Both the position numbers and the translations under genes were made by a program. A model generated the notes under the pieces. That model had not been told where the DNA came from. It saw nothing but the letters and a program-made list of their open reading frames with translations, and searched no databases. From a phage, in the NCBI GenBank assembly GCA_036436775.1, contig GCA_036436775.1_3676.1: a DNA stretch of 64,000 nt; one strand, 5' to 3'. Below are positions 21,896-44,182 of the stretch, piece after piece (position 1 is the stretch's first letter; each line of letters opens with the position of its first letter).

Positions 21896-23189
21896 CTTCG
21901 GTTTGAAGGGGTATGGAGATACACCTGAGTGAACAGGGTGAACAACCGAACCATTGGCTATGGCATTAGCATGGCGAAGCGGACGGGTGACGAAAGAGGG
22001 GCCGGAGGACACCAGTCACTGCCATATGATATATGGGTGATAACCTGAAGAGTCTGAATAAGTGTTTAAGTACCAGTCAGAGGAAAAGGTGAATGGTAGC
22101 CGAAGGGGGAGGGGGGGTTACCTGCTTCTGTAAACATGCATCTGAAATACTACTTTAGATAACCTGAACCTGCCTTTCTGACAAATATTCCCTATTAAAC
22201 TTGAATTATTTATAGAAAATACCACAACACCACTTAAGTCTTTGATTTTACACACAAATCCTACAGATATTCACCTTCCATATTTAACATACTTGTAACA
22301 TATCTATACCTAACCTGTCCGATCAACTCCCCCACCCACATCCTCCATATTTTCCCTGTCTGTACCACCCCTGCCCCGCCGGGAGTCCCGTCATATCTGG
22401 CTTTCCAGCAAATATCACACCCACAAATATCATTGCCTGAAGAGGGTTTCATCCCATAATACATGCCTTACCTGAAGAGCGCTTCATATACCCAGTAAAT
22501 TTTTTAATTGACCCCCCTCCCAGCCGCCGGAGGGGTTGGCTTTTCCCACACAGACCTGAAGAGTCAGCCAGAAATATCTGAAGAGGTCCAGTTATGCCAC
22601 GATTTTGTGCTTGTCCTACAGGAGTGCTTCCCTGTCAGGAGCCGGTAGCGACTGGAGTGCTGCCAGGCGGACGAAATGGGAATCATTCTCATTCTTATAA
22701 CAATTCTCAAATATCGAGGCAGTGAGGCAAATTAATAGGTGAGGCCGTTCACACAGTGGCACAACATTTGCAACCTATCTTTTATGGGTGAATGAGAATA
22801 CCTATCATTGTGAGAATAGTTATCATTACGGGCAATTTAACATAATACCCATTATGCGCACCACTGGCGATACATACAGGGATTGATAACATGAGTTACT
22901 GTTTACACACATAACAATTATATTTCTTACTATTTGTGTGGGATATAGTTAGCAGCCGATAGATTAGATATTGACCTGCAGGCTTCCAACCGTCCAGACG
23001 TCTAAACGCCCACACAACAAGGATTATACATACAACACTGAATGTAAACAGGGCCGCAAAAATGCTACCATACAAGCTTGTAAATTTTTCATGCAGCACT
23101 TGACAAAGAGGAGAAAAACTTGTCTGACACAATATGACTTAATTGCCACAACATGACACTTTTGCACACCTGATTGTTTGCATGTCTAA

Positions 23190-23554
23190 TAGTTTACATA
23201 GATAACTGTTCACATACTTATCATTTACATGATTGACTGTTTACACAAAGATGATAAGCCATGCCATTCGTTTGCATGACAATAATTAACTGGTTTGCAA
23301 TTAACAAGTTAATAATCTTTCACTGGCTATGCCAGGTGACCTTTGGTCACACCTTCGGGTGTTTCTATGACATAATATAAAAGCAGGGCAACTATTAGCA
23401 GATATATAGTTGCCTTGCTTGTTATGTCATGATTAACTAAATACAAGGCAACTATGATCTGGTTAATAGTTTGCAGACAAACTATCACGGGGGTGATGGT
23501 TACTGCTTTTATATTATGTCGCGACTCCGTCGCGCCATGCCATTCGTTTGCATA
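23190..23554. repeat. Iteron/palindrome cluster (candidate origin or regulatory region)
   Basis: TGTTTACA-type iterons 23193-23250; 20-bp direct repeat GCCATGCCATTCGTTTGCAT at 23258 and 23535; 18-bp perfect inverted repeat at 23369-23386 / 23504-23521; GGCAACTAT palindromes between. Confidence 0.6.
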
Positions 23555-24172
23555 GTTGCCTTATTGTTACATATAAAATAATTGTATTGTTAATTATTTC
23601 TTATCTTTCTCTTAGTCATCTAATGATTCCAGTCAGTATAGTAATGTACAGTAAACATTAGACGACTAAAGATTTATATGCTTATAATAACTTACAGTGA
23701 CAATTTCGGACTGTTTACGAAAAATGTTGACACCTGAGCTGATTTATGTTATGCAGTTTACACGAATAATTATTTTATGCAGGTATTGACTATTCCGTTA
23801 TTCTATGGTCGGAATAAATACTTAGCAGACTATAGAATGGTGACGCTACGTGAATTCTGGAATTTAGTGGCTATAGTTATACCCGATTTTTCACGTAGAA
23901 CACGCTTTTGTGGTTATGTAAGTGTATGACTTATAAAGATTTTTAGTTGTTGACAAGACACTGAAGATATGCATCAGGTTAAATTTTGTGCAATAGCGGC
24001 ATTACGTGCAATTTTGGAAGGAAAAACGTGTAAAAATGGCCCTGCTACCACACAATGAAAGATTATGCAATAGCTATTTTACATGTATATTTGTACAGTG
24101 TGTGGGATTGATGGCTAGTCAATTATTCCACTTGCAGGCTGGGCCGTTTGTGGTAGGAGAAATACAGACAAA

Positions 24173-24207
24173 AAGAAAGGGGCCTTTTAAAGCCCCTGAT
24201 AGTTTAG
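24173..24207 (-). terminator. Rho-independent terminator ending the - strand small-gene island
   Basis: On - strand AGGGGC-TTTAAAA-GGCCCCT followed by TTCTTTTTGTCTG. Confidence 0.65.
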
Positions 24208-24215
24208 TTAAGAAA

Positions 24216-24635
24216 TTATAATGATTCGTATATTTGATAGATTCGATTTGCCAGGTCATTACGATAGCGGAATTTTTCATCACGCTTGATCATCAGATCT
24301 TTGAAGCCATATTCTTTAAGCACTTCATTAACTTTATAGCGGCATACCTTCATATTATCTTGCGCGTCACCGATAAATTTGTTGCTATGATGCATGGCTT
24401 TGATCTCTTCCTCCAGAGCCAGGGCAACTACGCGGACCGGATCAAGCTGATATGCGGTAACATCAATGCGGCATTGTAAACGGCTTTTAACGTCTGCCAC
24501 CGGATATACTGCAACCTCTTCCCCGTCAACATTCACAATAACCAGTTTACCATCAATTTCAAAACCTTTTGCGGCTGGGCCGTGACAAAAAGCGTTATCA
24601 AAGCTGTATGCGGGATTGTTAGATTTAATATTCAT
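24216..24635 (-). CDS. Hypothetical protein
   Basis: 139-aa ORF; upstream promoter and AGAGG RBS. Confidence 0.65.
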   Translation of the reverse strand: MNIKSNNPAYSFDNAFCHGPAAKGFEIDGKLVIVNVDGEEVAVYPVADVKSRLQCRIDVTAYQLDPVRVVALALEEEIKAMHHSNKFIGDAQDNMKVCRYKVNEVLKEYGFKDLMIKRDEKFRYRNDLANRIYQIYESL

Positions 24636-24682
24636 GGTGTTTACCTCTTAGATAATTTTCTTACAACTTCCTTCTGAAAAAG

Positions 24683-24711
24683 AATATAGCAAAACTGCCG
24701 ATCCTTGTCAA
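24683..24711 (-). promoter_or_regulatory. Sigma70-like promoter TTGACA-N17-TATATT (- strand)
   Basis: Hexamers read on reverse complement. Confidence 0.55.
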
Positions 24712-24773
24712 TAAGGATAGCATTATTTTTCAGAATCAAGGGGCTTTCGCCCCTGGTTGTATGGCTTGCTGTA

Positions 24774-25037
24774 TTACTTGTTATTCATCCAGTATTCCCA
24801 ACTTGCCTGATATTCTGCTTCATCACGGCGGATCTCTTCTTGCTCGGCAAGGCGGATCTCTTCTTCCAGGTATCCCAAGATATCGCCCTTTTTAGTCTGG
24901 CGTAACATCCAGTCGTCCTTTTTGCGGGTGAAAATTTTGTAAGCTTTTTCACAAACTTCTTTTTTGCTGCCTTTTTGAACTTCAAGGATACGGTAAGCCA
25001 TATGTTGAACTACTTTAAGCTGATCGATGCGTTTCAT
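24774..25037 (-). CDS. Hypothetical protein
   Basis: 87-aa ORF; RBS AGAGAGGAAAACATT. Confidence 0.6.
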   Translation of the reverse strand: MKRIDQLKVVQHMAYRILEVQKGSKKEVCEKAYKIFTRKKDDWMLRQTKKGDILGYLEEEIRLAEQEEIRRDEAEYQASWEYWMNNK

Positions 25038-25097
25038 AATGTTTTCCTCTCTATGTGGTCTTGATTAGTGGGCCTTTCGGCCCGTGTCATTATCTTA

Positions 25098-25370
25098 TTA
25101 CTTACGGCGGCAGAATTCAAGCGTTTTTAATTGATAATCTTCTTCGGCCTGGAGAACAACCGCCTCGATCATTTGGTTGGCGTTATCGAATCCGTATCCT
25201 CTGGCGAACTCATCAGCACCGCCTTTATGGTTGTATTCTGCGTTCATCGCTTCCACAAAATGGAATTCAAGATTATTGAGGTAAGGGCTTGATGTTCCGT
25301 CCTCTTTTTCGATGAGATCCCAAATAGCATTAAAACGTGATTCGACTTCTTGATTAATCCAGCTTGACAT
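25098..25370 (-). CDS. Hypothetical acidic protein
   Basis: 90-aa ORF; RBS AGAGAGGAAAACATC. Confidence 0.6.
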   Translation of the reverse strand: MSSWINQEVESRFNAIWDLIEKEDGTSSPYLNNLEFHFVEAMNAEYNHKGGADEFARGYGFDNANQMIEAVVLQAEEDYQLKTLEFCRRK

Positions 25371-25589
25371 GATGTTTTCCTCTCTTCTGGTTGTTGTGTT
25401 GGCACTTTTGCCCCTTCAAGATAATGTTACCCCACCCCCCTGGCAGATGTCAACGGTTTTTATAGTTCCTATATGACAGGCAGGTCCGGTGGTTGTCTCC
25501 CCCTGTTCCCAAGTGCCGCCCGTTTAATAAGAATAGCAAAAGGGGCCGAACAAGTCAACCCCCAAAATAAGTACCAAAACACTTTTTAT

Positions 25590-25901
25590 TTATACGGTCC
25601 GATCATTGGCCTTTGTCCAGGACCTGGCGATCCGTTTCCCGGTCACCTGGAACGGAGACTGCATTGTGTGTAAGGAGTCCAGCGTAAGGGAGGACCGTTT
25701 ACGGCGTATCTTCAGGATCGCTAACGTATTGTCCATCTCACGGCCAGGCCCTAGGCGGTATGGTGTGCCTCCAGCGTTAAGGTTGATGATCTCATGTATT
25801 GAGATCCGGCGTTGTTTTGCTTCCGCATCTTTGAAGATAGCCAGCGGGGGAGCTATGCGTTGCCGATACCAATCTAAAACGGTTGGCGTAATAGCGATCA
25901 T
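25590..25901 (-). CDS. Hypothetical protein
   Basis: 103-aa ORF with AGGGGG RBS; C-terminal extent uncertain. Confidence 0.4.
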   Translation of the reverse strand: MIAITPTVLDWYRQRIAPPLAIFKDAEAKQRRISIHEIINLNAGGTPYRLGPGREMDNTLAILKIRRKRSSLTLDSLHTMQSPFQVTGKRIARSWTKANDRTV

Positions 25902-26089
25902 ATTTTACCCCCTATGTAGTCAGGTCGGTTTTTCTCTGTCATGCGCTTAAGCAATTCTTGCATATGGCTGATAGCTTGTAGCGTGTCTTCTTCCAGGCTT
26001 GAATCTACATAATCAGGATCGTCTATGACCTTTCTATGATTATGATAACGCAGTACCGCCAATACCTTTCTAACTTGTTCAGTATTCAT
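25898..26089 (-). CDS. Hypothetical protein
   Basis: 63-aa ORF with AAGGGAGATG RBS. Confidence 0.55.
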   Translation of the reverse strand: MNTEQVRKVLAVLRYHNHRKVIDDPDYVDSSLEEDTLQAISHMQELLKRMTEKNRPDYIGGKI

Positions 26090-26105
26090 TTTACATCTCC
26101 CTTAC

Positions 26106-26396
26106 TTATTGTTGGCGGTTTACGTAAGCTTTACCGTTTACCGTCATCGGCAAATCTTCCAGGTCTGGATCTTCCTTAAGGTCGCGAGCAAGTTCACCGC
26201 ACCGGATACCCTCGAATCCGTAGTACTCTGTTGTGCCGTCCTTAAAAGTTTTAGCGGCAAGGCATAAGCGATAAGTAACCCCGATTCGATTGACGGCATG
26301 AATATCCGTTAGATTAACCTCTTTTGCCAGCTCTTTAGCCATTACAGGCGCATTAAGTCCAACAACCAGGGCAACTACTGCGATCATCTTTTTCAT
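26106..26396 (-). CDS. Secreted/periplasmic small protein (signal peptide)
   Basis: 96-aa ORF; N-terminus MKKMIAVVALVVGLNAPVMA resembles a Sec signal peptide. Confidence 0.6.
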   Translation of the reverse strand: MKKMIAVVALVVGLNAPVMAKELAKEVNLTDIHAVNRIGVTYRLCLAAKTFKDGTTEYYGFEGIRCGELARDLKEDPDLEDLPMTVNGKAYVNRQQ

Positions 26397-26487
26397 TGTG
26401 TCTAGCCTCTTTCTGCTACGTTTAAGGCGGCGGTAACCGCCTGTTTATGCTTTGTTGGTTAATTTTCGGGTATCGGTATAAATTAAA

Positions 26488-26703
26488 CTATGCTGTACGC
26501 TCAACTATAACAACGGTTTGAGGAATCTCACCTTCCACCACTAGCAAGGCCTTTTTCTGCGTGATGGATATCTTTACCCGTTGTAGCGTGGCGGTGAAGT
26601 CTTTCATTTCGTCACGTGGTGTTTTAGTGCAATGCCAGATCTCAGGCTTACCTATTTGCAAGCCGCGTAAAAATTCTGTTTTCCCTGTTTTGTTAGTGAT
26701 CAT
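26488..26703 (-). CDS. Hypothetical protein
   Basis: ORF; start moved to ATG with AAGGTGGAG RBS. Confidence 0.5.
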   Translation of the reverse strand: MITNKTGKTEFLRGLQIGKPEIWHCTKTPRDEMKDFTATLQRVKISITQKKALLVVEGEIPQTVVIVERTA

Positions 26704-26713
26704 TTGCTCCACC

Positions 26714-26818
26714 TTAACCGATACCGTTGGAAGATAGGATCATGTTAGCCAGAGTCGCAACCACTCCAACCGATAACACCAGGCCCACTATTACAACCGT
26801 GAAAATTTTCTCTAACAT
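26714..26818 (-). CDS. Small hydrophobic peptide (34 aa)
   Basis: ATG with GAGGGT RBS; single TM helix; not in ORF track. Confidence 0.4.
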   Translation of the reverse strand: MLEKIFTVVIVGLVLSVGVVATLANMILSSNGIG

Positions 26819-26860
26819 GATTCTACCCTCATTGATGGGCGTTACTGCCCCGCTTATGGT

Positions 26861-27097
26861 TTATTGATTGATGTTATAATGAAAGTTATTTTCTTCAGTA
26901 GCTTTTAAAATAAAAGCCGTGATCGCTTTCGTGTCTACTTGTTCGAACGTATCAGAATAGCACCAATAATAATCATCCCCTACTTTCGGCGGGTAAACCT
27001 GGACAAGGAGATCGCCACTTGGTTGATCTATAATCTCAACATGCAAGCCGGATGATTCAGCGGTTTTAACGGCGGTTAATACTGTTGCAATACTCAT
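26861..27097 (-). CDS. Hypothetical protein
   Basis: 78-aa ORF with AAAGGAAAAG RBS. Confidence 0.55.
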   Translation of the reverse strand: MSIATVLTAVKTAESSGLHVEIIDQPSGDLLVQVYPPKVGDDYYWCYSDTFEQVDTKAITAFILKATEENNFHYNINQ

Positions 27098-27177
27098 AAT
27101 CTTTTCCTTTCCGATGTGGGGGCGTTGCCTTATTGCCCCGCCCTACGAAATACATTCTATCAGATAACAAATTATCG

Positions 27178-27324
27178 TTAAGATTTATTTTTTACTTCCC
27201 AAACGGAAAATTCACTACCTATCGGGAGCATTCTTTTAATCTTGTTTGCTGCCGCTACCAGATCCACGGCTTGCACTGTAATAATATAGCCAATTGTCGA
27301 GGCTGTTGCGTTGAAAGTTTTCAT
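27178..27324 (-). CDS. Hypothetical small protein (48 aa)
   Basis: Start moved to ATG with AGAGGATAAT RBS; promoter TTGACA-N17-TAAGAT at 27362-27390. Confidence 0.5.
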   Translation of the reverse strand: MKTFNATASTIGYIITVQAVDLVAAANKIKRMLPIGSEFSVWEVKNKS

Positions 27325-27396
27325 TATATTATCCTCTAATCTAGGCCGCCCTACGTGATACATCTTACACTATTTGAAAATGTTGTCAAACTATTT

Positions 27397-27576
27397 TAAC
27401 GATAATCATCATATGCTTTATTTACCTGGCGAATATAACATTCAAAAGCCAGATCAATAGATTCATATTCACGGATATATTCACCATAGGAAACCACGTA
27501 CATCTTTATAGCTTCCTCATATGCTAGGAGAATAGAATCTAACCCTACGATCTCAGTCTTTGCAATAATAGCCATG
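27397..27576 (-). CDS. Hypothetical small protein (59 aa)
   Basis: ATG with AAGAGGATAAAAATC RBS; not in ORF track. Confidence 0.5.
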
Positions 27577-27650
27577 ATTTTTATCCTCTTTGTGGTTGGT
27601 GGGGCTTGTTGCCCCCTTTGATTTATATATTACAGTCTTATATGGTCATG

Positions 27651-27884
27651 TCAACTATTTTCAAAAAATTTTTCTGCTGTGATATTCTTCCCGGTGGGGT
27701 TAGCTACTTTTAAAATTTTATCATGCACTGGACGCCCAAAAGAATAAGATCCGTATGCAGTAAACCAATAATCGCCGTCAGGTTGTACTATTACCGCCGC
27801 ATATGGTACGCCTTTTTCGTTTTTGCTGACAAAATAGATCACATTGCCATTAATAGCCTCAGCGCGTTTAATTTGTTCCATCAT
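27651..27884 (-). CDS. Hypothetical protein
   Basis: 77-aa ORF with AGAGAGG RBS; GC hairpin in 5'UTR. Confidence 0.6.
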   Translation of the reverse strand: MMEQIKRAEAINGNVIYFVSKNEKGVPYAAVIVQPDGDYWFTAYGSYSFGRPVHDKILKVANPTGKNITAEKFFENS

Positions 27885-27938
27885 GATGATTTACCTCTCT
27901 TTATTTTCATAATTGGGGCCTTTTCGGCCCCGCCAGGT

Positions 27939-28223
27939 TTATTTATTGATAGCGTGCAGCGGGAAAGGTACGCCAGGTTGATAAATAACTTTTACAACCT
28001 CATCCGGGCAAAAGTAGTTGCAGAATTCACCCTGGTAGGCTTCTTCTTCTTTCAATTCGTCATCAACATACTCAAAAAAGTAGTCAACACTTGGATAATC
28101 TTGACCGGAGTTATAATCAACCATAGTGAGGACCAGTTCAAGATCATTGCGGATGATATGCATACCAGCTTTTAAATACTTCGCTTCCATTTTTACTACA
28201 TCGCCAGCGGTAACAATAGCCAT
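27939..28223 (-). CDS. Hypothetical acidic protein
   Basis: 94-aa ORF with TAGGAG RBS. Confidence 0.6.
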   Translation of the reverse strand: MAIVTAGDVVKMEAKYLKAGMHIIRNDLELVLTMVDYNSGQDYPSVDYFFEYVDDELKEEEAYQGEFCNYFCPDEVVKVIYQPGVPFPLHAINK

Positions 28224-28351
28224 GATTTTAACTCCTATCTATCTGGTTAATGATTGGGGGCCTCCCCCTCGACAACTCTTATTATCCATATTGTCGGGAA
28301 TGATGCAAGTACTTCTTTAAAAATTTTTTAAGCGCCCCGTATGCCGTTGTA

Positions 28352-28390
28352 ACGCCAAAATAATAAAGGCCATGCAACCGCATGGCCTTT
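28352..28390 (-). terminator. Rho-independent terminator (- strand)
   Basis: On - strand GGCCATGC-GGTT-GCATGGCC followed by TTTATTATTTTGG. Confidence 0.6.
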
Positions 28391-28448
28391 ATGTGATTAT
28401 ATTGCTGCAGGCCCTGCTAGGGGCCTTATTTTGCACCATTTGCCGGAA

Positions 28449-28757
28449 TTATTCAGAGAAAACATCGTTCACAATAGCGATCACAATGCCGCCCACCTTG
28501 TCACGGTCAACAATGCACAAATCACCATAAATCATGTGGTAGTCTGGATGATCTTTCACGGAATAGTCAATGAGTGTTTTCTTATCGTCCAGCTTCGTAA
28601 CTTCCATTCTCATAACGATATGAGAATCATCAAAGGCATTATTCCGAAAAGTCATAGCCTGACCGCCAGGGCACCCGGTGATCTCCACTTCCACACCATC
28701 TACAATCTGACCATCAAAGAAATAAAGATTATTAGCCTGGATAAACATGTCTATCAC
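28449..28757 (-). CDS. Hypothetical protein
   Basis: 102-aa ORF with AAGGAG RBS. Confidence 0.6.
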   Translation of the reverse strand: MIDMFIQANNLYFFDGQIVDGVEVEITGCPGGQAMTFRNNAFDDSHIVMRMEVTKLDDKKTLIDYSVKDHPDYHMIYGDLCIVDRDKVGGIVIAIVNDVFSE

Positions 28758-28794
28758 TCCTTGTTAACTGCGTGGTATTTTAACAGGGTTTAAA

Positions 28795-28839
28795 TTTACT
28801 TTATTGATGGCCCTGGAGTCAAGGCCATCTAAAAATAAA
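28795..28839. repeat. 45-bp exact repeat, copy 1 (TTTACTTTATTGATGGCCCTGGAGTCAAGGCCATCTAAAAATAAA)
   Basis: Identical to copies at 32521 and 33141; starts 2 nt after a - strand stop codon; contains palindrome GATGGCC...GGCCATC with TTGACT in the loop. Confidence 0.9.
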
Positions 28840-28841
28840 TT

Positions 28842-29042
28842 TTACAGGCCTACAATCTCTTTGATTCGTTTAACCGCTGCCTCAGCGCCTTGGGGGTAAA
28901 AATTATGGTAACCAATCACGCGAGTGATACTAATCGCCGTTTGATGATCTTCATAATCGCCCTTGAAGATTTCTTGACCATCGACCAGAACAGCCAGTTT
29001 TTCATCTTTTTTAAAATTGATAACGCGAATATTCTTGCTCAT
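28842..29042 (-). CDS. Hypothetical protein
   Basis: 66-aa ORF with GAAGAGGAGAAAG RBS. Confidence 0.6.
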   Translation of the reverse strand: MSKNIRVINFKKDEKLAVLVDGQEIFKGDYEDHQTAISITRVIGYHNFYPQGAEAAVKRIKEIVGL

Positions 29043-29144
29043 TTTCTTTCTCCTCTTCAGGCTTTTGTTTGTGTGGTGGGGATGTTTCCCCGTTGATTGT
29101 TATTATCCATATTGCGGACCAGATTGCAACACCCTGGAAGAAAA

Positions 29145-29180
29145 ATTTTTTGAAAAAGATAAGCCCCCATGATTGGGGGC
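29145..29180 (-). terminator. Rho-independent terminator (- strand)
   Basis: On - strand GCCCCCA-ATCA-TGGGGGC followed by TTATCTTTTTC. Confidence 0.55.
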
Positions 29181-29185
29181 CGTTC

Positions 29186-29305
29186 TTAGTTACTTACAGC
29201 GATAAAGTACATCCCTACGCCTAACAATATTTCAAGGGCGATGATCTCCAGCCATACCATAACCCGGCGCACCTTATCGGTGCTGGGCTTATCCTTGGTT
29301 GTCAT
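29186..29305 (-). CDS. Small membrane peptide (39 aa)
   Basis: ATG with GGGGAGACG RBS; TM helix; not in ORF track. Confidence 0.4.
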   Translation of the reverse strand: MTTKDKPSTDKVRRVMVWLEIIALEILLGVGMYFIAVSN

Positions 29306-29341
29306 CGTCTCCCCCTTTCCTTCTGGTAGTAGTGACGTGGT

Positions 29342-29548
29342 TTACAATGGCCCCCCAGGAGTACCATCACCACGCACATCACAAGAAAAATTATCTCTGT
29401 CGTTGTTCGATCCATTGTTATAAAATTCCTCAAGATCAGGCCTGAAAATAAAGCGTTCGTTATTGAATCCGTCACGCCAAGCGGCTGGCTTCAAATCTTC
29501 ACTAAAGGGATTAATTAACGTGGCATTATTTAAACGGTTGGCCCACAT
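29342..29548 (-). CDS. Hypothetical protein
   Basis: Start moved to ATG with GAGAGGAA RBS. Confidence 0.45.
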   Translation of the reverse strand: MWANRLNNATLINPFSEDLKPAAWRDGFNNERFIFRPDLEEFYNNGSNNDRDNFSCDVRGDGTPGGPL

Positions 29549-29900
29549 ATTTTCTATTCCTCTCAAATAAGCGATCCGCCTCAGTTAAACATATCTCATG
29601 GGCTTGATCTCTGGTTTTAGCTTCATCAAAAACTTGTTGCGCCAGGCTGCAGCGCAAGGAGACCGGAAGATCACTATAATAGGCGTTAACAAAAGTTTGA
29701 GCGTCATACAGGTCGGAAAATACTTTACCCTTATTATTATTATTATCCTTGTCAACAATTGCAAGGATAACTAGTACAATGGTTGCAACCACTCCCAGGA
29801 AAATAGATATAACAAACCATAGAAAAGCGGATCTACCTATTTTGCCAGCTATCCAGGCGTTGAACAAGGCAACTACTACAGCCAAAATAATAAATTCCAT
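29526..29900 (-). CDS. Membrane protein (2 predicted TM helices)
   Basis: Start moved to ATG with AAAGAGGTACATAGA RBS. Confidence 0.6.
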   Translation of the reverse strand: MEFIILAVVVALFNAWIAGKIGRSAFLWFVISIFLGVVATIVLVILAIVDKDNNNNKGKVFSDLYDAQTFVNAYYSDLPVSLRCSLAQQVFDEAKTRDQAHEICLTEADRLFERNRKYVGQPFK

Positions 29901-29964
29901 TCTATGTACCTCTTTTGCAGTTCTGTTTAACAATAAGGCGGCAAATATGCCGCCTGTTACCTGA

Positions 29965-30345
29965 TTAAAAATTATCGCCGTAAATCTTTCCGCTTTCTGC
30001 CCACACTACCACGCGGGGCATGTTATCCCATACATCTTGTTTTAGATTTAACGCGTGCAATTCTTCGGTGGTGCTCATACCAGGCACGGGCTGATTGTAT
30101 ACTGCAAAACGACCACCTGCATAATCATAGGCCAGAGTTAAATCACACTGGATCATCTTTTTGATCATGGCGTTGAGCATAGCGTTAGCCGCATACTGGT
30201 CACGTTTTAAAGGCAACTCTTTGATTAGTTTGCGATAGTTTTCAATGTGATCACACACTGTTTCACGTGGAAGATCTTTCATATCCTCGCGAAAGGTAAC
30301 CAGGTTAAACATAACGGTGTCAATAGCTTTAGTAGTGTTTTTCAT
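29965..30345 (-). CDS. Hypothetical protein
   Basis: Start moved to ATG with AAAGAGGAAAACATC RBS; promoter TTGCAA-N16-TATATT and hairpin in UTR. Confidence 0.6.
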   Translation of the reverse strand: MKNTTKAIDTVMFNLVTFREDMKDLPRETVCDHIENYRKLIKELPLKRDQYAANAMLNAMIKKMIQCDLTLAYDYAGGRFAVYNQPVPGMSTTEELHALNLKQDVWDNMPRVVVWAESGKIYGDNF

Positions 30346-30435
30346 GATGTTTTCCTCTTTGTTTTGTGTGGGGGGCAAACGTCTTGCCCCTTGAGTTTTA
30401 ATATAGCAGGTTTTTAGGTTATTGCAACACTTTAT

Positions 30436-31059
30436 TTATGAAAAAGTCATCTCACCATATTCATCGACATCAAACCGCCAATCATTGGCCTCGATAAGGC
30501 CGATCAAGTTTTCAGATGTGAATTGCTCCAAATAGGCCGCTTCCAAGTCTACGTAAACCTTGCGAGATAGTTCACGTACAGTCTCGGTGATCAGCTCTTC
30601 CAGATCTTCCACTTTGTTTTCTTGCTTGGTGGTCAGGTCCAGCCATGTAGTATCGATGTATCCGTTTACAGTGTTTTCGTGACTATATCGGCTGTATGTG
30701 TCACGTTCAACACTTGCGGATAGCTCGCCATCGTGCATTGTGCCGAACAAGTGACGAATTGAGCGGAATTTAGTCAGAGACTTGACTTTACGCAAGAATT
30801 TTTCTAAATCCACGTTTTCAGCACTGATTGACGCGCCGTCACCCTGGCACCAAAAGCCGGACCAATGTACATCTGTATCTTCAAGCCCGTACTCTGGAAA
30901 AACATATTCTTTATAGTATTCAATTACACTTTCTGCGAAAAAGTTATCGCCGCTGTTTTCTTCTCTTTCGCGGACCATTTCAACGGCTTTTTCTTTTTGT
31001 TCATCAGTCAGCACGTCGAAAGATAAATTGTAACCTGCGGTAATGTTAACGGTAGTCAT
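30436..31059 (-). CDS. Hypothetical protein (207 aa)
   Basis: ORF with AGGAGAAAATATC RBS; own promoter and 5'UTR hairpin GGCGGGAA-AAA-TTCCCGCC. Confidence 0.65.
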   Translation of the reverse strand: MTTVNITAGYNLSFDVLTDEQKEKAVEMVREREENSGDNFFAESVIEYYKEYVFPEYGLEDTDVHWSGFWCQGDGASISAENVDLEKFLRKVKSLTKFRSIRHLFGTMHDGELSASVERDTYSRYSHENTVNGYIDTTWLDLTTKQENKVEDLEELITETVRELSRKVYVDLEAAYLEQFTSENLIGLIEANDWRFDVDEYGEMTFS

Positions 31060-31116
31060 GATATTTTCTCCTATTTTCTTCGGTGGTGGCGGGAATTTTT
31101 CCCGCCTATGTGGTTA

Positions 31117-31144
31117 AGTATACTTGTCTAATCTTACTTGTCAA
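31117..31144 (-). promoter_or_regulatory. Sigma70-like promoter TTGACA-N16-TATACT (- strand)
   Basis: Hexamers read on reverse complement. Confidence 0.55.
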
Positions 31145-31394
31145 CACTATTTTTTAAATTGTTGTAGCGTAAAACGTTCAAGATATCTTTGATATCATCA
31201 GCACGGCGGCAATTTTTAAACGCTACCAATTGCCCCAGGATTTTAATCACCGGGCGGCCTTGCCAGTGCCCTTGAAGAAAGCGCGCCTTAACCTTATCGG
31301 TGGAACTATCACGCCACCAAACGGCTTTATTATTGCAGTAGTAAAAATTATTTAGGACAACATCGACTTTATCAAAATTTTTCAATTTACGCAT
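31134..31394 (-). CDS. Hypothetical basic protein
   Basis: 86-aa ORF with AAGGGG RBS; promoter TTGACA-N18-TATACT at 31430-31459. Confidence 0.55.
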   Translation of the reverse strand: MRKLKNFDKVDVVLNNFYYCNNKAVWWRDSSTDKVKARFLQGHWQGRPVIKILGQLVAFKNCRRADDIKDILNVLRYNNLKNSVDK

Positions 31395-31616
31395 GGCGTT
31401 TACCCCTTACTTCTCGCTTTGATGTGATTAGTATATCTAGAGTATTTTTAGATGTCAACAATATTTTTAACGCTTTAAAACAGCCTTTGACGATGTTTTC
31501 AGGTTAAGAAAGGGGATTGCATGGGTAGGGGGCCTTTAGGGCGTTGTGGGGCCAACCAGGGGCGCTATTCGTAGGATAGAAATAAAAAGCCCCGCACGAT
31601 GGCGGGGCGTTGGTTG

Positions 31617-31814
31617 TTAGTTGCCTTTGTGGCGGTATCGTTCCGCCTGCCGTTCACGTTCCAAAAGGAGGCCCGGCAATTTACGATCATAATGATTCCG
31701 CCAGATCTTCCCAAATCTTTTTGGCTTATTCAGTTTATTGTTACGCTGGCGGCGTTCCGGCAGCTCTTCGGAATCATGAGATCGCTTTACAATCTTCTCA
31801 AAATTAATCTTCAT
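31617..31814 (-). CDS. Hypothetical basic protein
   Basis: Start moved to ATG with AAGGGGGGAATAT RBS. Confidence 0.5.
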   Translation of the reverse strand: MKINFEKIVKRSHDSEELPERRQRNNKLNKPKRFGKIWRNHYDRKLPGLLLERERQAERYRHKGN

Positions 31815-32157
31815 ATATTCCCCCCTTGCTAACTTCAATATTGGCCTGAATAGCCCTGATACGTCGCTTTATAGCTTCCTGATTTGTGTGATCGTATCCC
31901 CAAAAGTCTACAATTTTTGCGCCACCAGCCTCCAGGCGGTATAGTGTTTCCTGCATCTTGTAAGCTGGGATCGGTCGCGGTGTTACTTGGTCACCTTCTT
32001 TATTTTTATACTTTACAATATAATCTTCGTTATCGTTGAATATCCAAAATGGATATTCTGCAAGGGCGGTACTTCCTCTTTCCTTTTTATCCTGGATCTT
32101 GTTTACAATTAAAGCCGTAGCAATAGCGCCAATAATAAAACTAGCCCCGCTGATCAT
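31804..32157 (-). CDS. Membrane-anchored hypothetical protein
   Basis: Start moved to ATG with AAAGGAGAAAG RBS; N-terminal TM helix. Confidence 0.55.
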   Translation of the reverse strand: MISGASFIIGAIATALIVNKIQDKKERGSTALAEYPFWIFNDNEDYIVKYKNKEGDQVTPRPIPAYKMQETLYRLEAGGAKIVDFWGYDHTNQEAIKRRIRAIQANIEVSKGGIYED

Positions 32158-32234
32158 GTTACTTTCTCCTTTCATGGTGTTAGTAAATTATCTTTACAGA
32201 TGTGGCCCTGCAGCCAGGACCACCGAAAAAATAA

Positions 32235-32480
32235 CTATTTCACAATGCCTACAAAACAGATCCCGCCTTCACCTATATAAGCAATGTCGGTAATTTTATA
32301 ATTTGTTAAGATCCGCGTATTCAGCTCGTTAATAAAATCGGTCATCGCGTTGGTGTAGTTGTCTTCCATGTCTAGGGAATAATCCCAGGTGTAAACCTTT
32401 TTACGTCCGAAGCCTTTTACCATGATCCGGGCGCTTTTGGTGTTGGTGGGCGCATAGTATTTGGTAATTAGTGCTGCCAT
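32235..32480 (-). CDS. Hypothetical protein
   Basis: 81-aa ORF with TGAGGAG RBS. Confidence 0.6.
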   Translation of the reverse strand: MAALITKYYAPTNTKSARIMVKGFGRKKVYTWDYSLDMEDNYTNAMTDFINELNTRILTNYKITDIAYIGEGGICFVGIVK

Positions 32481-32520
32481 GGTTTTAACTCCTCATTAGT
32501 TCAGTGTTAACAGTGTAAAG

Positions 32521-32565
32521 TTTACTTTATTGATGGCCCTGGAGTCAAGGCCATCTAAAAATAAA
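32521..32565. repeat. 45-bp exact repeat, copy 2
   Basis: Identical to 28795-28839; starts 2 nt after the stop of the 32567-32908 gene. Confidence 0.9.
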
Positions 32566-32566
32566 T

Positions 32567-32908
32567 TTATTCGTTTTCTTCCAGTTCTGAAAGCTCTTCT
32601 TTCACTTCCTCAAGCTCTGTCTGCAATTCCTGGTATTCTTCATCGTCCTCAATATCCAGGCTGTCGATGTAGTCGCTAAATCCGCAGCGGTAAGCGATAG
32701 GATCTAGCTCCTTGAGGATACGCGACGGAAGAAAAGAAATGTTTCCGATCATAATTTCGCCGTAGATCTCGTCTAACCATTCATCATAGTTTTCGTCGTA
32801 CTTGTCCTCGTCGATTTCAAAGTTATCGATCTTATTCTCAAGGTCTGCGATCTGTTTTTTCAGCGCGGCGATCTGCATGGCTTTTTCTGCGGCGGTCATA
32901 GTAGTCAT
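32567..32908 (-). CDS. Highly acidic coiled-coil-like protein
   Basis: 113-aa ORF, strongly D/E-rich, AAAGGAGAAAACAC RBS. Confidence 0.6.
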   Translation of the reverse strand: MTTMTAAEKAMQIAALKKQIADLENKIDNFEIDEDKYDENYDEWLDEIYGEIMIGNISFLPSRILKELDPIAYRCGFSDYIDSLDIEDDEEYQELQTELEEVKEELSELEENE

Positions 32909-32957
32909 GGTGTTTTCTCCTTTTGTGTGTTCTGGGAAGTTTTCCCGTTGATGTGCT

Positions 32958-32986
32958 TAGTATATCGATCTAAGTTAGCTTGTCAA
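32958..32986 (-). promoter_or_regulatory. Sigma70-like promoter TTGACA-N17-TATACT (- strand)
   Basis: Hexamers read on reverse complement; followed by hairpin CGGGAA-AACT-TCCCAG. Confidence 0.55.
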
Positions 32987-33106
32987 TTAAAAATTTAAGA
33001 AAAATTTTGCAAAACTGTTAGCGCTACTCATCAACATTTGCGCCAGGATGTACCCAATGATGCAAACGATGATGGTTACCTTTGTGTGCTGGCGTGTAGT
33101 GCTCAT
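32987..33106 (-). CDS. Small membrane peptide (39 aa)
   Basis: ATG with AAAAAGGAGG RBS; TM helix; not in ORF track. Confidence 0.45.
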   Translation of the reverse strand: MSTTRQHTKVTIIVCIIGYILAQMLMSSANSFAKFFLNF

Positions 33107-33140
33107 CTTCAAGCCTCCTTTTTAGCTTAACTGGGATTAG

Positions 33141-33185
33141 TTTACTTTATTGATGGCCCTGGAGTCAAGGCCATCTAAAAATAAA
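33141..33185. repeat. 45-bp exact repeat, copy 3
   Basis: Identical to 28795-28839; starts 2 nt after the stop of the 33187-33582 gene. Confidence 0.9.
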
Positions 33186-33186
33186 C

Positions 33187-33582
33187 TTAGTAAGTTTTCA
33201 GTACTTTCCCGTCCAGTCTGTCAAGCTGGATCTCGATAGCTGCAGAAAACCTATTATAAACCACATCGCCCATGGAGTCCAGCCAATCTATGACGTTATA
33301 CACCTGCTCTTTGTTCTTGCAAGTCCGGATCCGTTTCATTACGTAAGACGGATCAATATTAGTGCTCTCGTTGTTGTGGTCATGCGCCTGGCCTGCTGCA
33401 TTAGTTATAGATTTTACAACCACCTGAAAGGGCTTTAAGGTGCCTTTTGCGTTCATCTCACGCGCTTTTGCGGCGCGGTTGTTATATGTTACACAACGGC
33501 GGCAAATGTTGACTAAATGCATATCAATAATTTTTTCATCGTTTGCCAGTTCGTTCATGATGCGGCGTACGTTCTTATTCAT
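33187..33582 (-). CDS. Hypothetical protein
   Basis: 131-aa ORF with AAAGGAAAAAGATC RBS; 5'UTR hairpin GGCGGGAA-TGT-TTCCCGCC. Confidence 0.6.
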   Translation of the reverse strand: MNKNVRRIMNELANDEKIIDMHLVNICRRCVTYNNRAAKAREMNAKGTLKPFQVVVKSITNAAGQAHDHNNESTNIDPSYVMKRIRTCKNKEQVYNVIDWLDSMGDVVYNRFSAAIEIQLDRLDGKVLKTY

Positions 33583-33630
33583 GATCTTTTTCCTTTGTGT
33601 TGGCGGGAAACATTCCCGCCTTTTGTGCCT

Positions 33631-33659
33631 AGTTTACTTTAATTTTGCAGCGTGTCAAT
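33631..33659 (-). promoter_or_regulatory. Sigma70-like promoter TTGACA-N17-TAAACT (- strand)
   Basis: Hexamers read on reverse complement. Confidence 0.5.
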
Positions 33660-33668
33660 AATTTTTTT

Positions 33669-34067
33669 TTATTCGTGGGCGCATGTCACAATGTGCTTTT
33701 TATACCCCAGGTGGGCAGCAAGTGCTGACAAAAACTCATCCTCATAGATCCAGCCGTTGGCAGTGATCCCCATAGCATTTAACGCGCTTTCAAGTGCTGC
33801 ATTGGCCTTATCATAACCGTGACCGCTCGCCTTGCCACCAGTATAACCGTACTTGTTGTTCTTGCTGTCGTGCATCCAAAAGACGCAATAATGAGTGTTA
33901 CCGCTGGAGGCGGCATAATACCGGATCTCGGCTACTTCGTGTAAATTATTATCATCGTCTAGGCCAACCAGATTATAAGCCTTGTAGAATCCCCGCTCAC
34001 GGCGGCAGTTCTTAACATCAGAAAAAGAGAAGTCAGCATTATCAAAATTAAAGGTTGTAGTTTTCAT
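33669..34067 (-). CDS. Hypothetical protein
   Basis: 132-aa ORF with AAGAGGATAAAATC RBS. Confidence 0.6.
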   Translation of the reverse strand: MKTTTFNFDNADFSFSDVKNCRRERGFYKAYNLVGLDDDNNLHEVAEIRYYAASSGNTHYCVFWMHDSKNNKYGYTGGKASGHGYDKANAALESALNAMGITANGWIYEDEFLSALAAHLGYKKHIVTCAHE

Positions 34068-34131
34068 GATTTTATCCTCTTAGTGTCTTTTGTGATTTAA
34101 GTATATTTTGTGTCAGACTACATGTCAATAT

Positions 34132-34329
34132 TTATTTTTTATTAAACCAGTGGTTGATCTGACCTTTTGTCAGGGCGCAACGGTTAAGCTGTTGCAGGGT
34201 ATAGCTATGACCGCGACGAAATTTATAAAGGCCTTGCCCGTTGTTGATGGTTACATCCACCAGGCAAACCACTTGATCGGTGACCACCTGGCGAGTGTTG
34301 CGACGTACTTTGATTCCGTATGCGTTCAT
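34132..34329 (-). CDS. Hypothetical basic protein
   Basis: 65-aa ORF with AAAGAGGATAAAAAATC RBS; promoter TTGACA-N16-TATTCT at 34382-34409. Confidence 0.55.
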   Translation of the reverse strand: MNAYGIKVRRNTRQVVTDQVVCLVDVTINNGQGLYKFRRGHSYTLQQLNRCALTKGQINHWFNKK

Positions 34330-34412
34330 GATTTTTTATCCTCTTTACTAGTTAGTGTGGTGTTGTTCACCTTGTAGGATAAGAATAGCAGGACTCCCCC
34401 GGTTGTCAACAA

Positions 34413-34591
34413 TTATTTTAAATTATTTTTATGATAGAATCCACCTGCCGCCGCCCCTACCAGGTTAACCATCATTTTTTCGTACTCTTCTTTATGTTCC
34501 AACGCTCCCGCCATAGCCTTTTCAACCAGGGCGATAGCCTCAGCGTCATTAATAGCTACATTTTCCAGGGGGGATCATATTACCTTTCATT
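34413..34591 (-). pseudogene. Small gene interrupted by frameshift at a C6/G6 homopolymer
   Basis: Strong RBS GAAGAGGAGG + ATG; frame breaks after 13 codons at CCCCCC; a 1-nt change would give a continuous ~59-aa ORF. Confidence 0.35.
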
Positions 34592-34748
34592 TTTGTACCT
34601 CCTCTTCAATTGTTACCTATCCTACAGTATAGGCCCACCAGGTTTACAAGCCTTCATTCTCTCCTACCTGGTCAGTTAGGTCCTGCCAGGCTGGCCCACC
34701 AGGTTGCAGCGGTTAGTGCATCAGGTTAGAAAAATTTTTTGAAAAGTG

Positions 34749-35010
34749 TTGACAGCGGCCCCGCCAGGTGGCACAATATACCTATCGAAAGGACGGAAGG
34801 CACCGGTGACGGGGGAGACAACCACCGGGGATGGGCGCTGCATAAAATGAGAACGGTTATCATTATCATTTAAAAGTTTATGCAAAAAATCCTTGCTCTC
34901 TTTGTCCTGTGTGATACTATAATAACAAGCCGGGGCAACAGGGGCCGGGAGACAACCACCGGGCCTGCCCGTTATTCTGCAAACGAGAATGATTATCATT
35001 CAAAATTCTA
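34749..35010 (+). ncRNA. Two tandem promoter-associated structured units (candidate small RNAs)
   Basis: Each unit has GC stem-loop with identical 17-nt core GGGAGACAACCACCGGG (34813-34829, 34946-34962) and downstream GAGAAYGRTTATCATT palindrome; first preceded by TTGACA and AT-rich UP-like stretch. Confidence 0.35.
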
Positions 35011-35079
35011 AATGAGAACTCCTCGCATTTAATAAATTTAATTAGCATGCTAATTACCCTCCGTAACAATTTCCTATAA

Positions 35080-35560
35080 AACAATACACCATAAAATTTC
35101 CATATAGAAATTTTAAAAATCCATTTCTGAAAACGAAAAATCGATTTCGTCCCAAAAAATTTCAGGCCGAGAGCCGGAACGATTCCCAGAAAATCCGATT
35201 CAGAAAACGAAAAACAGATCGAGTACTGAGAAATTTATCGAGAAAAGTTTTCAGAAAATCAGAGCCCTGAAATGAAAAGTAGATCGAGTACCTGGAAATC
35301 CGCACCGTGACTTCAAGATAGTGGTTAGATTGTTACCATAGAAGGTCAAGGGTAAGTGGAGGAAGTTCTAGTAGAGGGATGTTAGCATGTGCGAGAAATC
35401 TGTAATGGTGGCCTGGAATATGGTGCAAACGATAGGATGGGTGATTCAGCTTGTCGCGCCCACTCTGAAAAAAATCCATTTTAGTTTTCGATCTATTTTC
35501 TGATTTTCTAAGAATTTTAAAATATCTGGCCCGGTGAAATATCAAAAGGAGGAAATCCAT
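35080..35560. repeat. AT-rich tandem/inverted repeat region
   Basis: About 40-45-bp units around CAGAAAAYGAAAAA...GATCGAGTAC repeated 3x at 35100-35300; AAATCCATTTT at 35100, 35467, 35549. Confidence 0.6.
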
Positions 35561-35605
35561 TTTAGAAATCCCCCTTACACTTGATATGCCAGGAATTTTC
35601 AAGTA

Positions 35606-35935
35606 TCAGCTGTCTTTGTTTTTAGGTTTGTACATGCGCAGAGGTATGGTCTTTGTAACATTCCATTTCCTCAATCCTTCCCAGCTCCAGTTGTGGGCGT
35701 GGTATCCGGTTATGCATGCACTACTGGAGTGATCGTAAGCATAAGAGAACGCTAAGCGCACTAGGTGAGGCCAGTCCTTCCACGGTTGTGGTCCGTAAGC
35801 TTTTCTCCAACACCGACACAAACTAAATGTCTCAAGAATAGGCAGGATAACAAATCCATACACCGCCACCAGAATAGCCAGCGCAATGATTGTCAGGAAT
35901 ACATACCCTGCAGTTGAAACGATGATCTCCGTCAT
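35606..35935 (-). CDS. Membrane-anchored hypothetical protein
   Basis: 109-aa ORF, N-terminal TM, AAGGGG RBS, ATGA overlap with upstream gene. Confidence 0.6.
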   Translation of the reverse strand: MTEIIVSTAGYVFLTIIALAILVAVYGFVILPILETFSLCRCWRKAYGPQPWKDWPHLVRLAFSYAYDHSSSACITGYHAHNWSWEGLRKWNVTKTIPLRMYKPKNKDS

Positions 35936-36129
35936 TTGTCATCCCCTTTCTTATGAATATAGATGTGTGAGCCTGCCTGTATATAAATTTCTCGACCATC
36001 TTCTGAAAAGATGTGGAATACACGGTCACCTTCATACTCGATACGAGATATCTTCATAATAGTTTTTCCACCTGGAATACGGATCTCGTCACCTACAGCA
36101 ATGTTCCATGCGGATTTAAGCTTAAACAT
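35932..36129 (-). CDS. Hypothetical protein
   Basis: Start moved to ATG with AAAGGAGGGTG RBS. Confidence 0.55.
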   Translation of the reverse strand: MFKLKSAWNIAVGDEIRIPGGKTIMKISRIEYEGDRVFHIFSEDGREIYIQAGSHIYIHKKGDDK

Positions 36130-43906: not shown

Positions 43907-44182
43907 CAATAGTTCAGGTAGGTCGTTAAGCTACCCCGCACCATTACGTGCATAGCCATACGTTTTCACGTAGGATCGGACCATCTCATATTCCTATGAT
44001 AAGCAACCACAGGAATCCTCCCATTTCGACCGCACTTGCTGGTCTACTTCCTTTCGGAATGGCCTCTGAGCGTTCGCTCTTTTGAGCGCTTCGTTGCGGA
44101 TTACCTTGCCATAAGGTTTAGGCTTCCCGCAGTTAAAGAGGTTATTCGACATAGATTACTCTATGAAGCCACAATGTTATTT
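43907..44182 (-). ncRNA. Candidate 276-nt group I intron splitting the DNA polymerase at motif C
   Basis: Upstream exon ends in U (codon CAT=His); intervening sequence ends in G before GAT GAG; joining gives YHDEYQLQV; internal GACCA/UGGUC pairing; contains stop codons. Confidence 0.5.

Follow-up and report, generated by a model that had tools for sequence, protein, structure and literature searches.

A left-end island of small genes in an rV5-type coliphage that appears to be assembled from recurrent promoter-hairpin cassettes

How a crowded row of very small phage genes is organized, and what purpose is served by the GC-rich hairpins in front of many of them, is the question raised by the locus described here. 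The locus, hereafter the island, occupies positions 24216-34329 on the minus strand (10.1 kb) of the window, the whole 64,000-nucleotide (nt) stretch of phage DNA that was analyzed (assembly GCA_036436775.1, contig GCA_036436775.1_3676.1). Dozens of genomes of Vequintavirus (rV5-like) coliphages matched it over 90-96% of its length, with an identity of 91-93%. Phages of this group are often proposed for therapy and biocontrol, and roughly one third of their genes are early ORFans that lack an explanation. Our analysis suggested that the island, at the left end of a coliphage of the rV5 type (Vequintavirus), is probably a variable region of early accessory genes, assembled from cassettes resembling the promoter-early stem-loops (PeSLs) of T4-like phages. 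The genes, promoters and terminators of the island are already known from the rV5 annotation; what is new is the cassette with its leader hairpin, the constraint on it, its occurrence in four genera and its connection with the shuffling of genes.

Thirty open reading frames (ORFs) with Shine-Dalgarno (SD) sites, all on the minus strand and numbered g1 to g30 from right to left, were found in the island. They encoded 34-207 amino acids (aa; mean 88, median 83.5), the island was 78% coding, and 29 of the 29 ORFs tested matched a PHROG family. A search of IMG/VR with g10 returned 8 loci, and relatives were therefore drawn from GenBank phage records; nine of them were used for the divergence figures and seven for the comparison of gene presence. 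Divergence at codon positions 1, 2 and 3 was 0.046, 0.024 and 0.179, respectively, a pattern which showed that the ORFs are real genes under selection. Because g14 overlaps g13 and is poorly conserved, it was considered doubtful, and the gene count is given as 29-30. The first-pass annotation, made from the sequence alone, had counted about 30 very small genes here, in agreement with these results. It had also described each gene as a self-contained unit with its own promoter and hairpin, and this part had to be abandoned, because the 30 genes shared 17 sigma-70-type promoters (18 if a weak candidate in front of g29 is counted) and a leader hairpin was present at only 10 of them.

The plus-strand genes at 1-22 kb of the window converge on the island. 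The annotated terminal repeat of phage Gotham mapped to positions 22666-23124 (95% identity), about 1.1 kb from the island, which means that the window crosses the physical genome end and that the island represents roughly the first 1.5-11.7 kb inside the left end, transcribed towards that end. The promoters in front of g30, g28, g20, g10, g9, g5, g3, g2 and g1 matched P164, P168, P174, P185, P186, P192, P194, P195 and P195A of rV5, respectively, and its terminators t164, t177, t181 and t184 were also matched. The island thus corresponds to rV5 genes 164-195, which form the tail of the transcription unit "10-1-238-164" (PMC3606486). The same genes, promoters and U-tract terminators were described at orthologous positions in rV5, with products that are all hypothetical, whereas that paper lists no leader or intercistronic hairpins, no CA-rich leader and no cassette shuffling (Kropinski 2013, PMC3606486). 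Five U-tract terminators split the island into about eight units.

Matches of at least 10 of 12 positions to TTGACA-N16-18-TATAAT numbered 11 on the minus strand of the island and none on its plus strand, compared with 1.0 ± 1.0 in shuffled sequences. A leader hairpin followed 10 of the 17 promoters. Three promoters lay in copies of a 63-nt repeat, 86-90% identical to each other, in which the hairpin overlapped the -35 box so that the -35 TTGACT sat in the hairpin loop and TAAACT came next. As read from the sequence, an AT-rich region containing the upstream stop codon lay just before the -35 box, such as gaaTAAaaaaaaattaTTGACA before g3, and a sigma-70 promoter stood in front of every hairpin of the kind that could suggest N4-type hairpin promoters, which ruled these out. 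Elsewhere in the 64 kb, one promoter had a leader hairpin 9-13 nt past its -10 box. This sole cassette outside the island (50824-50760, minus strand) consisted of TTGACT-17-TAAGAT, then GGGGAGG-cact-CCTCCCC starting 11 nt past the -10 box, and a CA tail.

GC hairpins had been noted in the first-pass annotation, and they proved to be enriched: 21 were found in the island against 5.7 ± 2.5 in shuffled sequences, 15 of them intergenic, at a density of 2.05/kb compared with 0.67/kb in the rest of the window. The quoted form GGCGGGAA-NNN-TTCCCGCC was located exactly at 33620-33602 and 31106-31088. Ten hairpins were downstream of a -10 box, three overlapped a -35 box and five were upstream of a promoter. 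The sequence 3' of the stem separated them cleanly into leader, intercistronic and terminator classes. In the 8-nt tails of the ten leader hairpins there were 0-1 T in nine cases, and 6-8 A+C, for the most part 7-8 (the exception, g18, had 3 T and 5 A+C). The five intrinsic terminators had 5-7 T in the same 8 nt, and the six intercistronic hairpins had intermediate tails with 2-5 T. Hairpins without a promoter preceded g12, g19, g23 and g25; g29 would be a fifth case if the weak candidate promoter in front of it is not genuine. Antisense terminators were ruled out since the tails on the plus strand were mostly poor U-tracts, and an Rfam search found no family matching the island hairpins.

The position of the leader hairpins was fixed with respect to both the promoter and the start codon. 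In 9 of the 17 promoters the stem began 9-13 nt (usually 10) past the -10 box, the tenth leader hairpin (g1) being weak. Transcription usually starts about 7 nt after the -10 box, by which rule the stem would begin 3-6 nt from the predicted 5' end of the mRNA. In folds of these predicted transcripts, the ribosome site was left open. The 3' end of the hairpin lay 19-35 nt before the ATG, with or without a promoter. This fixed distance implied that the recurrent unit is composed of hairpin, CA spacer, SD site and ATG, and that the promoter is optional and, when present, places the hairpin at the 5' end of the message. The unpaired fraction of the ribosome site was 0.59 in the island and 0.46 in the other genes of the window (p = 2e-4). 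The CA-rich leader noted earlier was borne out, as A+C at positions -32 to -14 amounted to 81% in the 10 cassettes and 67% in all 30 genes, compared with 52% in the genes at 36-60 kb. The near-identical ribosome-binding sites of the first-pass annotation resolved into small families, with AGAGGAAAACATC-ATG at g11 and g28 (one base different at g29) and AGAGGATAAAA(A)TC-ATG at g1, g2 and g20.

Comparison with the relatives showed that these elements are under constraint. Divergence was 0.011 in the -35 boxes and 0.027 in the -10 boxes, against 0.141 in the promoter spacers, so that the hexamers were 5-13 times more conserved than the spacers. It was 0.041 in the hairpin stems and 0.149 in the loops. 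The hairpins, whose fate in relatives the first-pass annotation had regarded as decisive, were therefore conserved, and judged by this conservation the promoter and hairpin elements are functional. The conserved internal hexamers also argued, on sequence evidence, against one long message without internal promoters. At g3 of phage MiataMamis the hairpin read GGCGGTTGA-tac-TCAGCCGCC, a different stem that still paired, and the hairpins of g16 and g18 occurred in several stem variants in the relatives with pairing kept. Pairing was assessed by folding each sequence and by comparison of orthologues. An alignment of the 17 paralogous cassettes with MAFFT and RNAalifold gave no consensus structure, the 3' arms being out of register, and column-wise pair counts, which are distorted by insertions and deletions in C/G runs, were used for loops, wobble pairs and clear cases only. 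In two relatives the loop was inverted while the stem was unchanged: gaaaa became ttttc in the hairpin before g19 of Phage 203, and ttaccg became cggtaa in the hairpin before g25 of FV3. Inverted loops are a signature of template switching at palindromes.

The same promoter-hairpin cassette was found in three further genera, each time with other genes downstream. It was present at five of the six terminal-region promoters of phAPEC8 (Phapecoctavirus), at 5 of 13 promoters of EmilieFrey (Justusliebigvirus) and at 3 of 9 promoters of Cronobacter phage CR9 (Certrevirus), and the consensus across genera was CACrTA-GGGCGGGrA..TyCCCGCC. In the phAPEC8 record, cassette 20-mers are labeled PHIRE "promoters", which indicated that the motif had been noticed earlier without being read as a hairpin.

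Gene presence varied between close relatives, and the homology breakpoints fell at hairpins and -35 boxes, with only one inside a gene. The g30 module, which lies between two hairpins with identical AGGGGC/GCCCCT stems, was missing from Gotham and FV3. Where g27 was deleted, alone or along with g26, the deletion stopped at the terminator's 3' edge (25541). MiataMamis carried a 566-nt insertion exactly at the -35 box of the g9 promoter (31458-31453), with a 6-nt overlap, and the homology of FV3 ended at the -35 box of the g20 promoter. Exchange with other subfamilies was also visible: the g22 module, bounded by hairpins, had 95.6% nt identity in phAPEC8, and EmilieFrey held g19, g20 and the g21-g24 block at 89-93% identity at scattered positions. 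That the breakpoints agree so exactly with short stretches of shared sequence speaks for recombination at the cassettes.

Similar arrangements are known as PeSL cassettes in the T4-like phages RB49, phi1, PST and nt-1 (Arbiol 2010, PMC2839356; Comeau 2014, PMC4122927). Both systems have an AT-rich region with a stop codon, a sigma-70-type early promoter, a GGGG..CCCC stem-loop, and an SD site with ATG. Both are clustered around ORFans in variable regions, with the junctions of indels and replacements inside the cassettes, and both include several positional subclasses, among them overlap with the -35 box and location downstream of the -10 box. The lineages differ, as PeSLs belong to T4-like phages and the island type to Vequintavirinae and Stephanstirmvirinae; the island genome is a Vequintavirus and its cassettes are therefore PeSL analogues rather than members by descent. 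Furthermore, the stem-loops of RB49 lie mostly in the stretch that separates the -35 box from the -10 box or over the -10 box, whereas the dominant class of the island is in the predicted 5' untranslated region, past the likely start site, carries a CA tail unlike that of a terminator, and has a hairpin-leader-ribosome site module that also occurs without a promoter.

A second parallel concerns RNA stability. Emory, and Bouvet and Belasco, reportedly found in 1992 that a 5'-terminal stem-loop stabilizes mRNA in E. coli (ompA, papA). In a stabilizer hairpin of this kind, the stem begins some 2-5 nt from the 5' end of the transcript. In ompA and papA, and by prediction in the island, a stable hairpin stands a few nt from the 5' end, and behind it come a single-stranded stretch and the ribosome site; the island hairpins are shorter and form a repeated family. 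References on such 5' stabilizers are listed in PMC3997798. This likeness favored a role at the RNA level, in stability and in an open ribosome site. A third parallel is with the Bacillus phage SPO1. Its host-takeover module lies in the terminal redundancy, where some two dozen small genes are distributed over many short operons whose early promoters and ribosome sites are strong. The small genes of the island likewise adjoin the genome end, but they show no sequence relation to those of SPO1 and lie outside the terminal repeat.

The reading that we favor is as follows. Unmodified host sigma-70 RNA polymerase would transcribe the island towards the genome end. Each full cassette would begin with an AT-rich stretch that contains the previous stop codon; behind it would come a promoter close to consensus, then a GC stem-loop, an unstructured spacer rich in C and A, and a strong SD site with the ATG. 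With a C/A tract instead of a U-tract behind its stem, the leader stem-loop would act in the RNA and not as a terminator. When 5'-terminal, it may shield the transcript from 5'-end-dependent decay (RppH, RNase E); when intercistronic and promoter-less, it may protect processed segments; and the CA spacer, which does not pair, would leave the ribosome site accessible. From their sequences, the leader hairpins are thus probably mRNA stabilizers, at the 5' end or between cistrons, that do not terminate transcription. As these short elements are found again and again in front of unrelated genes, the cassettes could double as crossover points at which genes are gained, lost and swapped, even between phage subfamilies.

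Several observations weigh against this interpretation. Five to seven promoters have no convincing hairpin (g2, g9, g21 and g30, with weak ones at g1, g5 and g28), and the loss of the g20 hairpin in Gotham showed that the element is dispensable. Among the sense-strand variants, G.U pairs exceeded A.C pairs only modestly (21 versus 6 cells, 8 versus 5 events), which suggested an action at the RNA level and did not prove it. Conservation of the motif extends beyond its structure to the sequence, which could point to a factor that binds it specifically. Breakpoints between genes would also result if viable recombinants were selected. A literature search found no data on transcript starts, ends, half-lives or transcriptomes of Vequintavirus, and the 5'-terminal position of the hairpin accordingly depends on the 7-nt rule. 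Finally, the stem-loops of PeSLs were shown to terminate transcription, which argues for a transcriptional role (PMC2839356).

According to the explanation proposed for PeSLs, the stem-loops would be transcriptional attenuators or insulators that damp read-through from upstream, so that its own promoter sets the level of each gene. Termination by PeSL stem-loops was observed in reporter tests (PMC2839356), the annotators of Murica and rV5 labeled some hairpins of the island type as terminators, and the intermediate T content of the intercistronic tails would fit. A terminator downstream of its own promoter would, however, stop its own transcript; the leader tails, with their few T and many A+C, are the opposite of a terminator; g12-g15, g19 and g23-g27, which lack a promoter, depend on read-through; and the fixed distance of the hairpin from the -10 box would be left unexplained. 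We regard attenuation as unlikely. The need of the promoter-less genes for read-through would equally suit a hairpin that is recognized by a specific phage or host factor, either a translational repressor or a nuclease for the shut-off of early messages, or a nut/put-like RNA signal close to the promoter that modifies RNA polymerase. Such recognition would account for the fixed place near the transcript start, for the conservation of the motif across two subfamilies, including the flanking CACrTA and the AATGGT-like loop, and for its recovery as a PHIRE "promoter" by the annotators of phAPEC8. It is difficult to reconcile with the diversity of stems and loops inside the island (GGCGGGAA, GGGGCAA, GGGGA, GGGGG) and with loops that evolve at a neutral rate (0.149) and are inverted in some relatives. 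No boxA-like partner was seen by eye, no search for one having been made; no Rfam family matched; and Pfam and PHROG searches of the island proteins gave no candidate binding protein. The chance that this explanation is correct seems small.

It would also be conceivable that the hairpins matter mainly as DNA, as replication-stalling or cruciform palindromes that promote template switching and cassette exchange without any role in expression. The breakpoints at hairpins, the inverted loops of Phage 203 and FV3 and the g30 module, missing from two relatives and flanked by identical stems, are what such a process would leave. Selection for evolvability alone would not keep stems at 0.041 against 0.149 for loops, though, nor would a role in DNA only fix the hairpins 9-13 nt past the -10 box and 19-35 nt before the ATG; besides, -35 boxes were equally often breakpoints, and any short shared sequence seems to serve. 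We consider this the most improbable of the explanations. A more speculative idea, to which we give little credence, is that CACrTA-GGGCGGGrA...TyCCCGCC, common to Vequintavirinae and Stephanstirmvirinae, is a dedicated cis signal instead of a generic stabilizer, either an RNA tag that is read by a phage factor (for timing or shut-off of early messages or for passage of polymerase through the intercistronic hairpins) or a DNA site for a dedicated recombination system that moves early-gene cassettes from phage to phage. An integron-like cassette array was rejected, since the island has no integrase or recombinase domain and its hairpins are short, perfect and located before the ORFs, where such an array would have imperfect attC-type hairpins behind each ORF.

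If the genes do sit in portable, self-regulated cassettes that move between subfamilies, the turnover of accessory repertoires in these phages would be explained. The cassette map shows annotators where the small genes and the real promoters lie, and a promoter with a 5' hairpin, a CA spacer and a strong ribosome site makes up a natural module for expression, compact enough that it could find further use in E. coli.

The products of the island gave few clues to function. The first-pass annotation could name no family, and this remained nearly so: a Pfam search of the island proteins matched only g8, to PF08200 (Phage_1_1; 42.4 bits, gathering cut-off 21), and every PHROG match of the 29 ORFs tested was labeled "unknown function". 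The predicted structure of g10 had a pLDDT (predicted local distance difference test) score of 86, and a fold search with this model found no solved or viral match beyond uncharacterized phage proteins. The model of g5 (pLDDT 88.5) was helical and found generic helical matches, nothing informative. Among Pfam, the PHROGs and the folds of these two models there was no significant match to an annotated anti-defense or host-takeover family. Labels given in phage JLBYU08 ("YeeU-like antitoxin", "acetyltransferase", "phosphonoacetaldehyde hydrolase") and in Murica ("Rel homology domain") were rejected because Pfam did not support them, nor, in the case of g10, did the fold search. Like g8, the T7 gene 1.1 protein of the PF08200 family is a small, basic, early protein, and this match adds little beyond "early gene".

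An organization expected of host-takeover or anti-defense genes had been proposed earlier. The layout was consistent with that of immediate-early accessory genes (near-consensus host sigma-70 promoters that are under strong purifying selection, the genome terminus, the gp1.1 homolog and variable gene content), whereas no product could be linked to such a role. Host takeover or anti-defense by these products is accordingly no more than an analogy. A literature search found no named anti-defense gene for rV5; an RNA-based anti-defense locus is known in the rV5-like phage PhiTE (PMC3475682).

The individual features, all on the minus strand, are given here from right to left. The promoter of g1 (34382-34409, TTGACA-16-TATTCT) and its weak leader hairpin (34359-34371, -4.5 kcal/mol) preceded a basic protein of 65 aa (34132-34329). 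The promoter of g2 (34100-34128, TTGACA-17-TATACT) had no hairpin, and g2 (33669-34067, 132 aa) was confined to Vequintavirus, with too few homologs for a structure model. For g3 (33187-33582, 131 aa), the promoter (33631-33658, TTGACA-16-TAAACT) was followed after 10 nt by the leader hairpin (33602-33620) with a CA-rich tail. Copies of the 63-nt repeat stood before g4 (repeat 33127-33189; gene 32987-33106), a membrane peptide of 39 aa, before g6 (repeat 32507-32569; gene 32235-32480, 81 aa), and before g17 (repeat 28781-28843; gene 28449-28748), an acidic protein of 99 aa. Between the first two copies lay g5 (32567-32908, 113 aa), which was very acidic (isoelectric point 4.05, 31% Asp+Glu) and had a promoter (32959-32986, TTGACA-16-TATACT) with a weak leader hairpin (32934-32946). 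Further on, g7 (31804-32157, 117 aa) had a membrane segment at its N-terminus, and g8 (31617-31814, 65 aa), the basic Phage_1_1 protein, was followed by an intrinsic terminator (31589-31608). Directly 3' of this terminator, positions 31589-31500 formed a C-rich, G-poor tract with the look of a Rho-loading site, in the same intergenic stretch that ended at the g9 promoter.

That promoter (31430-31458), with no convincing hairpin, served the basic g9 (31134-31394, 86 aa). The acidic g10 (30436-31059, 207 aa) had a promoter at 31117-31144 and a leader hairpin at 31088-31106, and g11 (29965-30345, 126 aa) a promoter at 30400-30427 (TTGCAA-16-TATATT) and a leader hairpin at 30372-30390. The intercistronic hairpin before g12 (29936-29955), which is t184 of rV5, had a weak U-tract; g12 itself (29526-29900, 124 aa) was a membrane protein. 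Next came g13 (29342-29548, 68 aa), the doubtful g14 (29302-29415, 37 aa), whose status as a membrane peptide is equally doubtful, and g15 (29186-29305), a membrane peptide of 39 aa with an intrinsic terminator behind it (29163-29180, rV5 t181). In the g13/g14 region (29302-29548), Gotham annotates a 126-nt ORF at the place of g14 and no g13, most other records call g13, and the conservation of g14 was limited to 17-21 residues. The cassettes of g16 (promoter 29102-29129, TTGCAA-16-GATAAT; hairpin 29078-29091; gene 28842-29042, 66 aa) and g18 (promoter 28281-28308, TTGCAT-16-GATAAT; hairpin 28256-28268, with other stems in the relatives; gene 27939-28223, 94 aa, acidic) were paralogous, and the terminator after g17 (28363-28392, rV5 t177) lay between them.

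The promoter-less g19 (27651-27884, 77 aa), with a copy in EmilieFrey at 93.5% nt identity, had the intercistronic hairpin GGGGCC-GAAAA-GGCCCC (27915-27931). For g20 (27396-27575, 59 aa), the promoter was at 27627-27654 and the leader hairpin at 27601-27615. Among the seven relatives, g21 (27178-27324, 48 aa) was found in MiataMamis only, and a breakpoint lay directly past the -35 box of its promoter (27362-27389). The promoter of g22 (27154-27181) was TTAACG-16-TAGAAT with TG in front, where EmilieFrey has TTGACA; its leader hairpin (27120-27143) was a recombination junction in phAPEC8, and the gene (26861-27097, 78 aa) was a mobile module common to phAPEC8 and EmilieFrey. The hairpin before g23 (26837-26850) was a breakpoint in FV3 and phAPEC8. 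It preceded a membrane peptide of 34 aa (26714-26818) and g24 (26488-26703, 71 aa), and another intercistronic hairpin (26425-26442) preceded g25 (26106-26396, 96 aa), a signal-peptide protein. With g4, g15 and g23 as small membrane peptides, g25 with its signal peptide and g5 as a very acidic protein, the product types listed in the first-pass annotation were recovered. Next were g26 (25898-26089, 63 aa) and the basic g27 (25590-25901, 103 aa), the latter missing from MiataMamis, Gotham and FV3; the terminator behind it (25541-25563) was a deletion breakpoint in three relatives. Operon-style spacing, with the gene directly behind the preceding one, was seen for g8, g13-g15, g24, g26 and g27.

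At the left end, the acidic g28 (25098-25370, 90 aa) had a promoter at 25424-25453 and a leader hairpin (25401-25412) weaker than in the relatives. The possible weak promoter of g29 (25120-25092) and the hairpin GGGCC-GAAA-GGCCC (25070-25083) lay before a gene of 87 aa (24774-25037). The hairpin AGGGGC-GAAA-GCCCCT (24739-24754) was upstream of the g30 promoter (24683-24711), which had no leader hairpin; its stem was the same as that of the terminator after g30 (24178-24197, rV5 t164), and g30 itself (24216-24635, 139 aa) was found in phAPEC8.

Some observations were made around the island. Beside the terminal repeat, the stretch 23000-24000 had a low GC content (35%) and no convincing ORFs. 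Directly upstream of the island, 34420-36000 contained few ORFs and is a candidate for an origin, for a site of packaging or for a locus of non-coding RNA. A box marked "non-coding" is drawn on the rV5 map (PMC3606486). Three copies of a 48-nt repeat with a spacing of 65-74 nt were located at 35113-35299, and by eye they were unlike the ToxI repeat. The sequence CCGGTGGTTGTCTCCC occurred in three exact copies, at 25486-25501 (plus strand), 34813-34828 and 34947-34962 (both minus strand), where 0.03 would be expected; the copies formed an inverted pair around g1-g27, and the core was about 25 nt. The 57-nt element that holds one of them (25485-25541) was kept in phAPEC8, EmilieFrey and CR9, with unconvincing predicted RNA folds. 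In the databases, 22 GenBank records titled "Campylobacter phage" (host C. jejuni; e.g. D#, C12 and A112b) matched the coliphage island at 91-92%, so that their host labels or sample purity appear doubtful. Elsewhere in the window, an ORF of 809 aa (46606-44177, minus strand) showed a weak match to family A DNA polymerase (27.9 bits, under the cut-off), and a full-length Rfam group I intron match (43957-44192, minus strand, 64.7 bits) started where this ORF ended; the polymerase gene thus looks interrupted by a group I intron.

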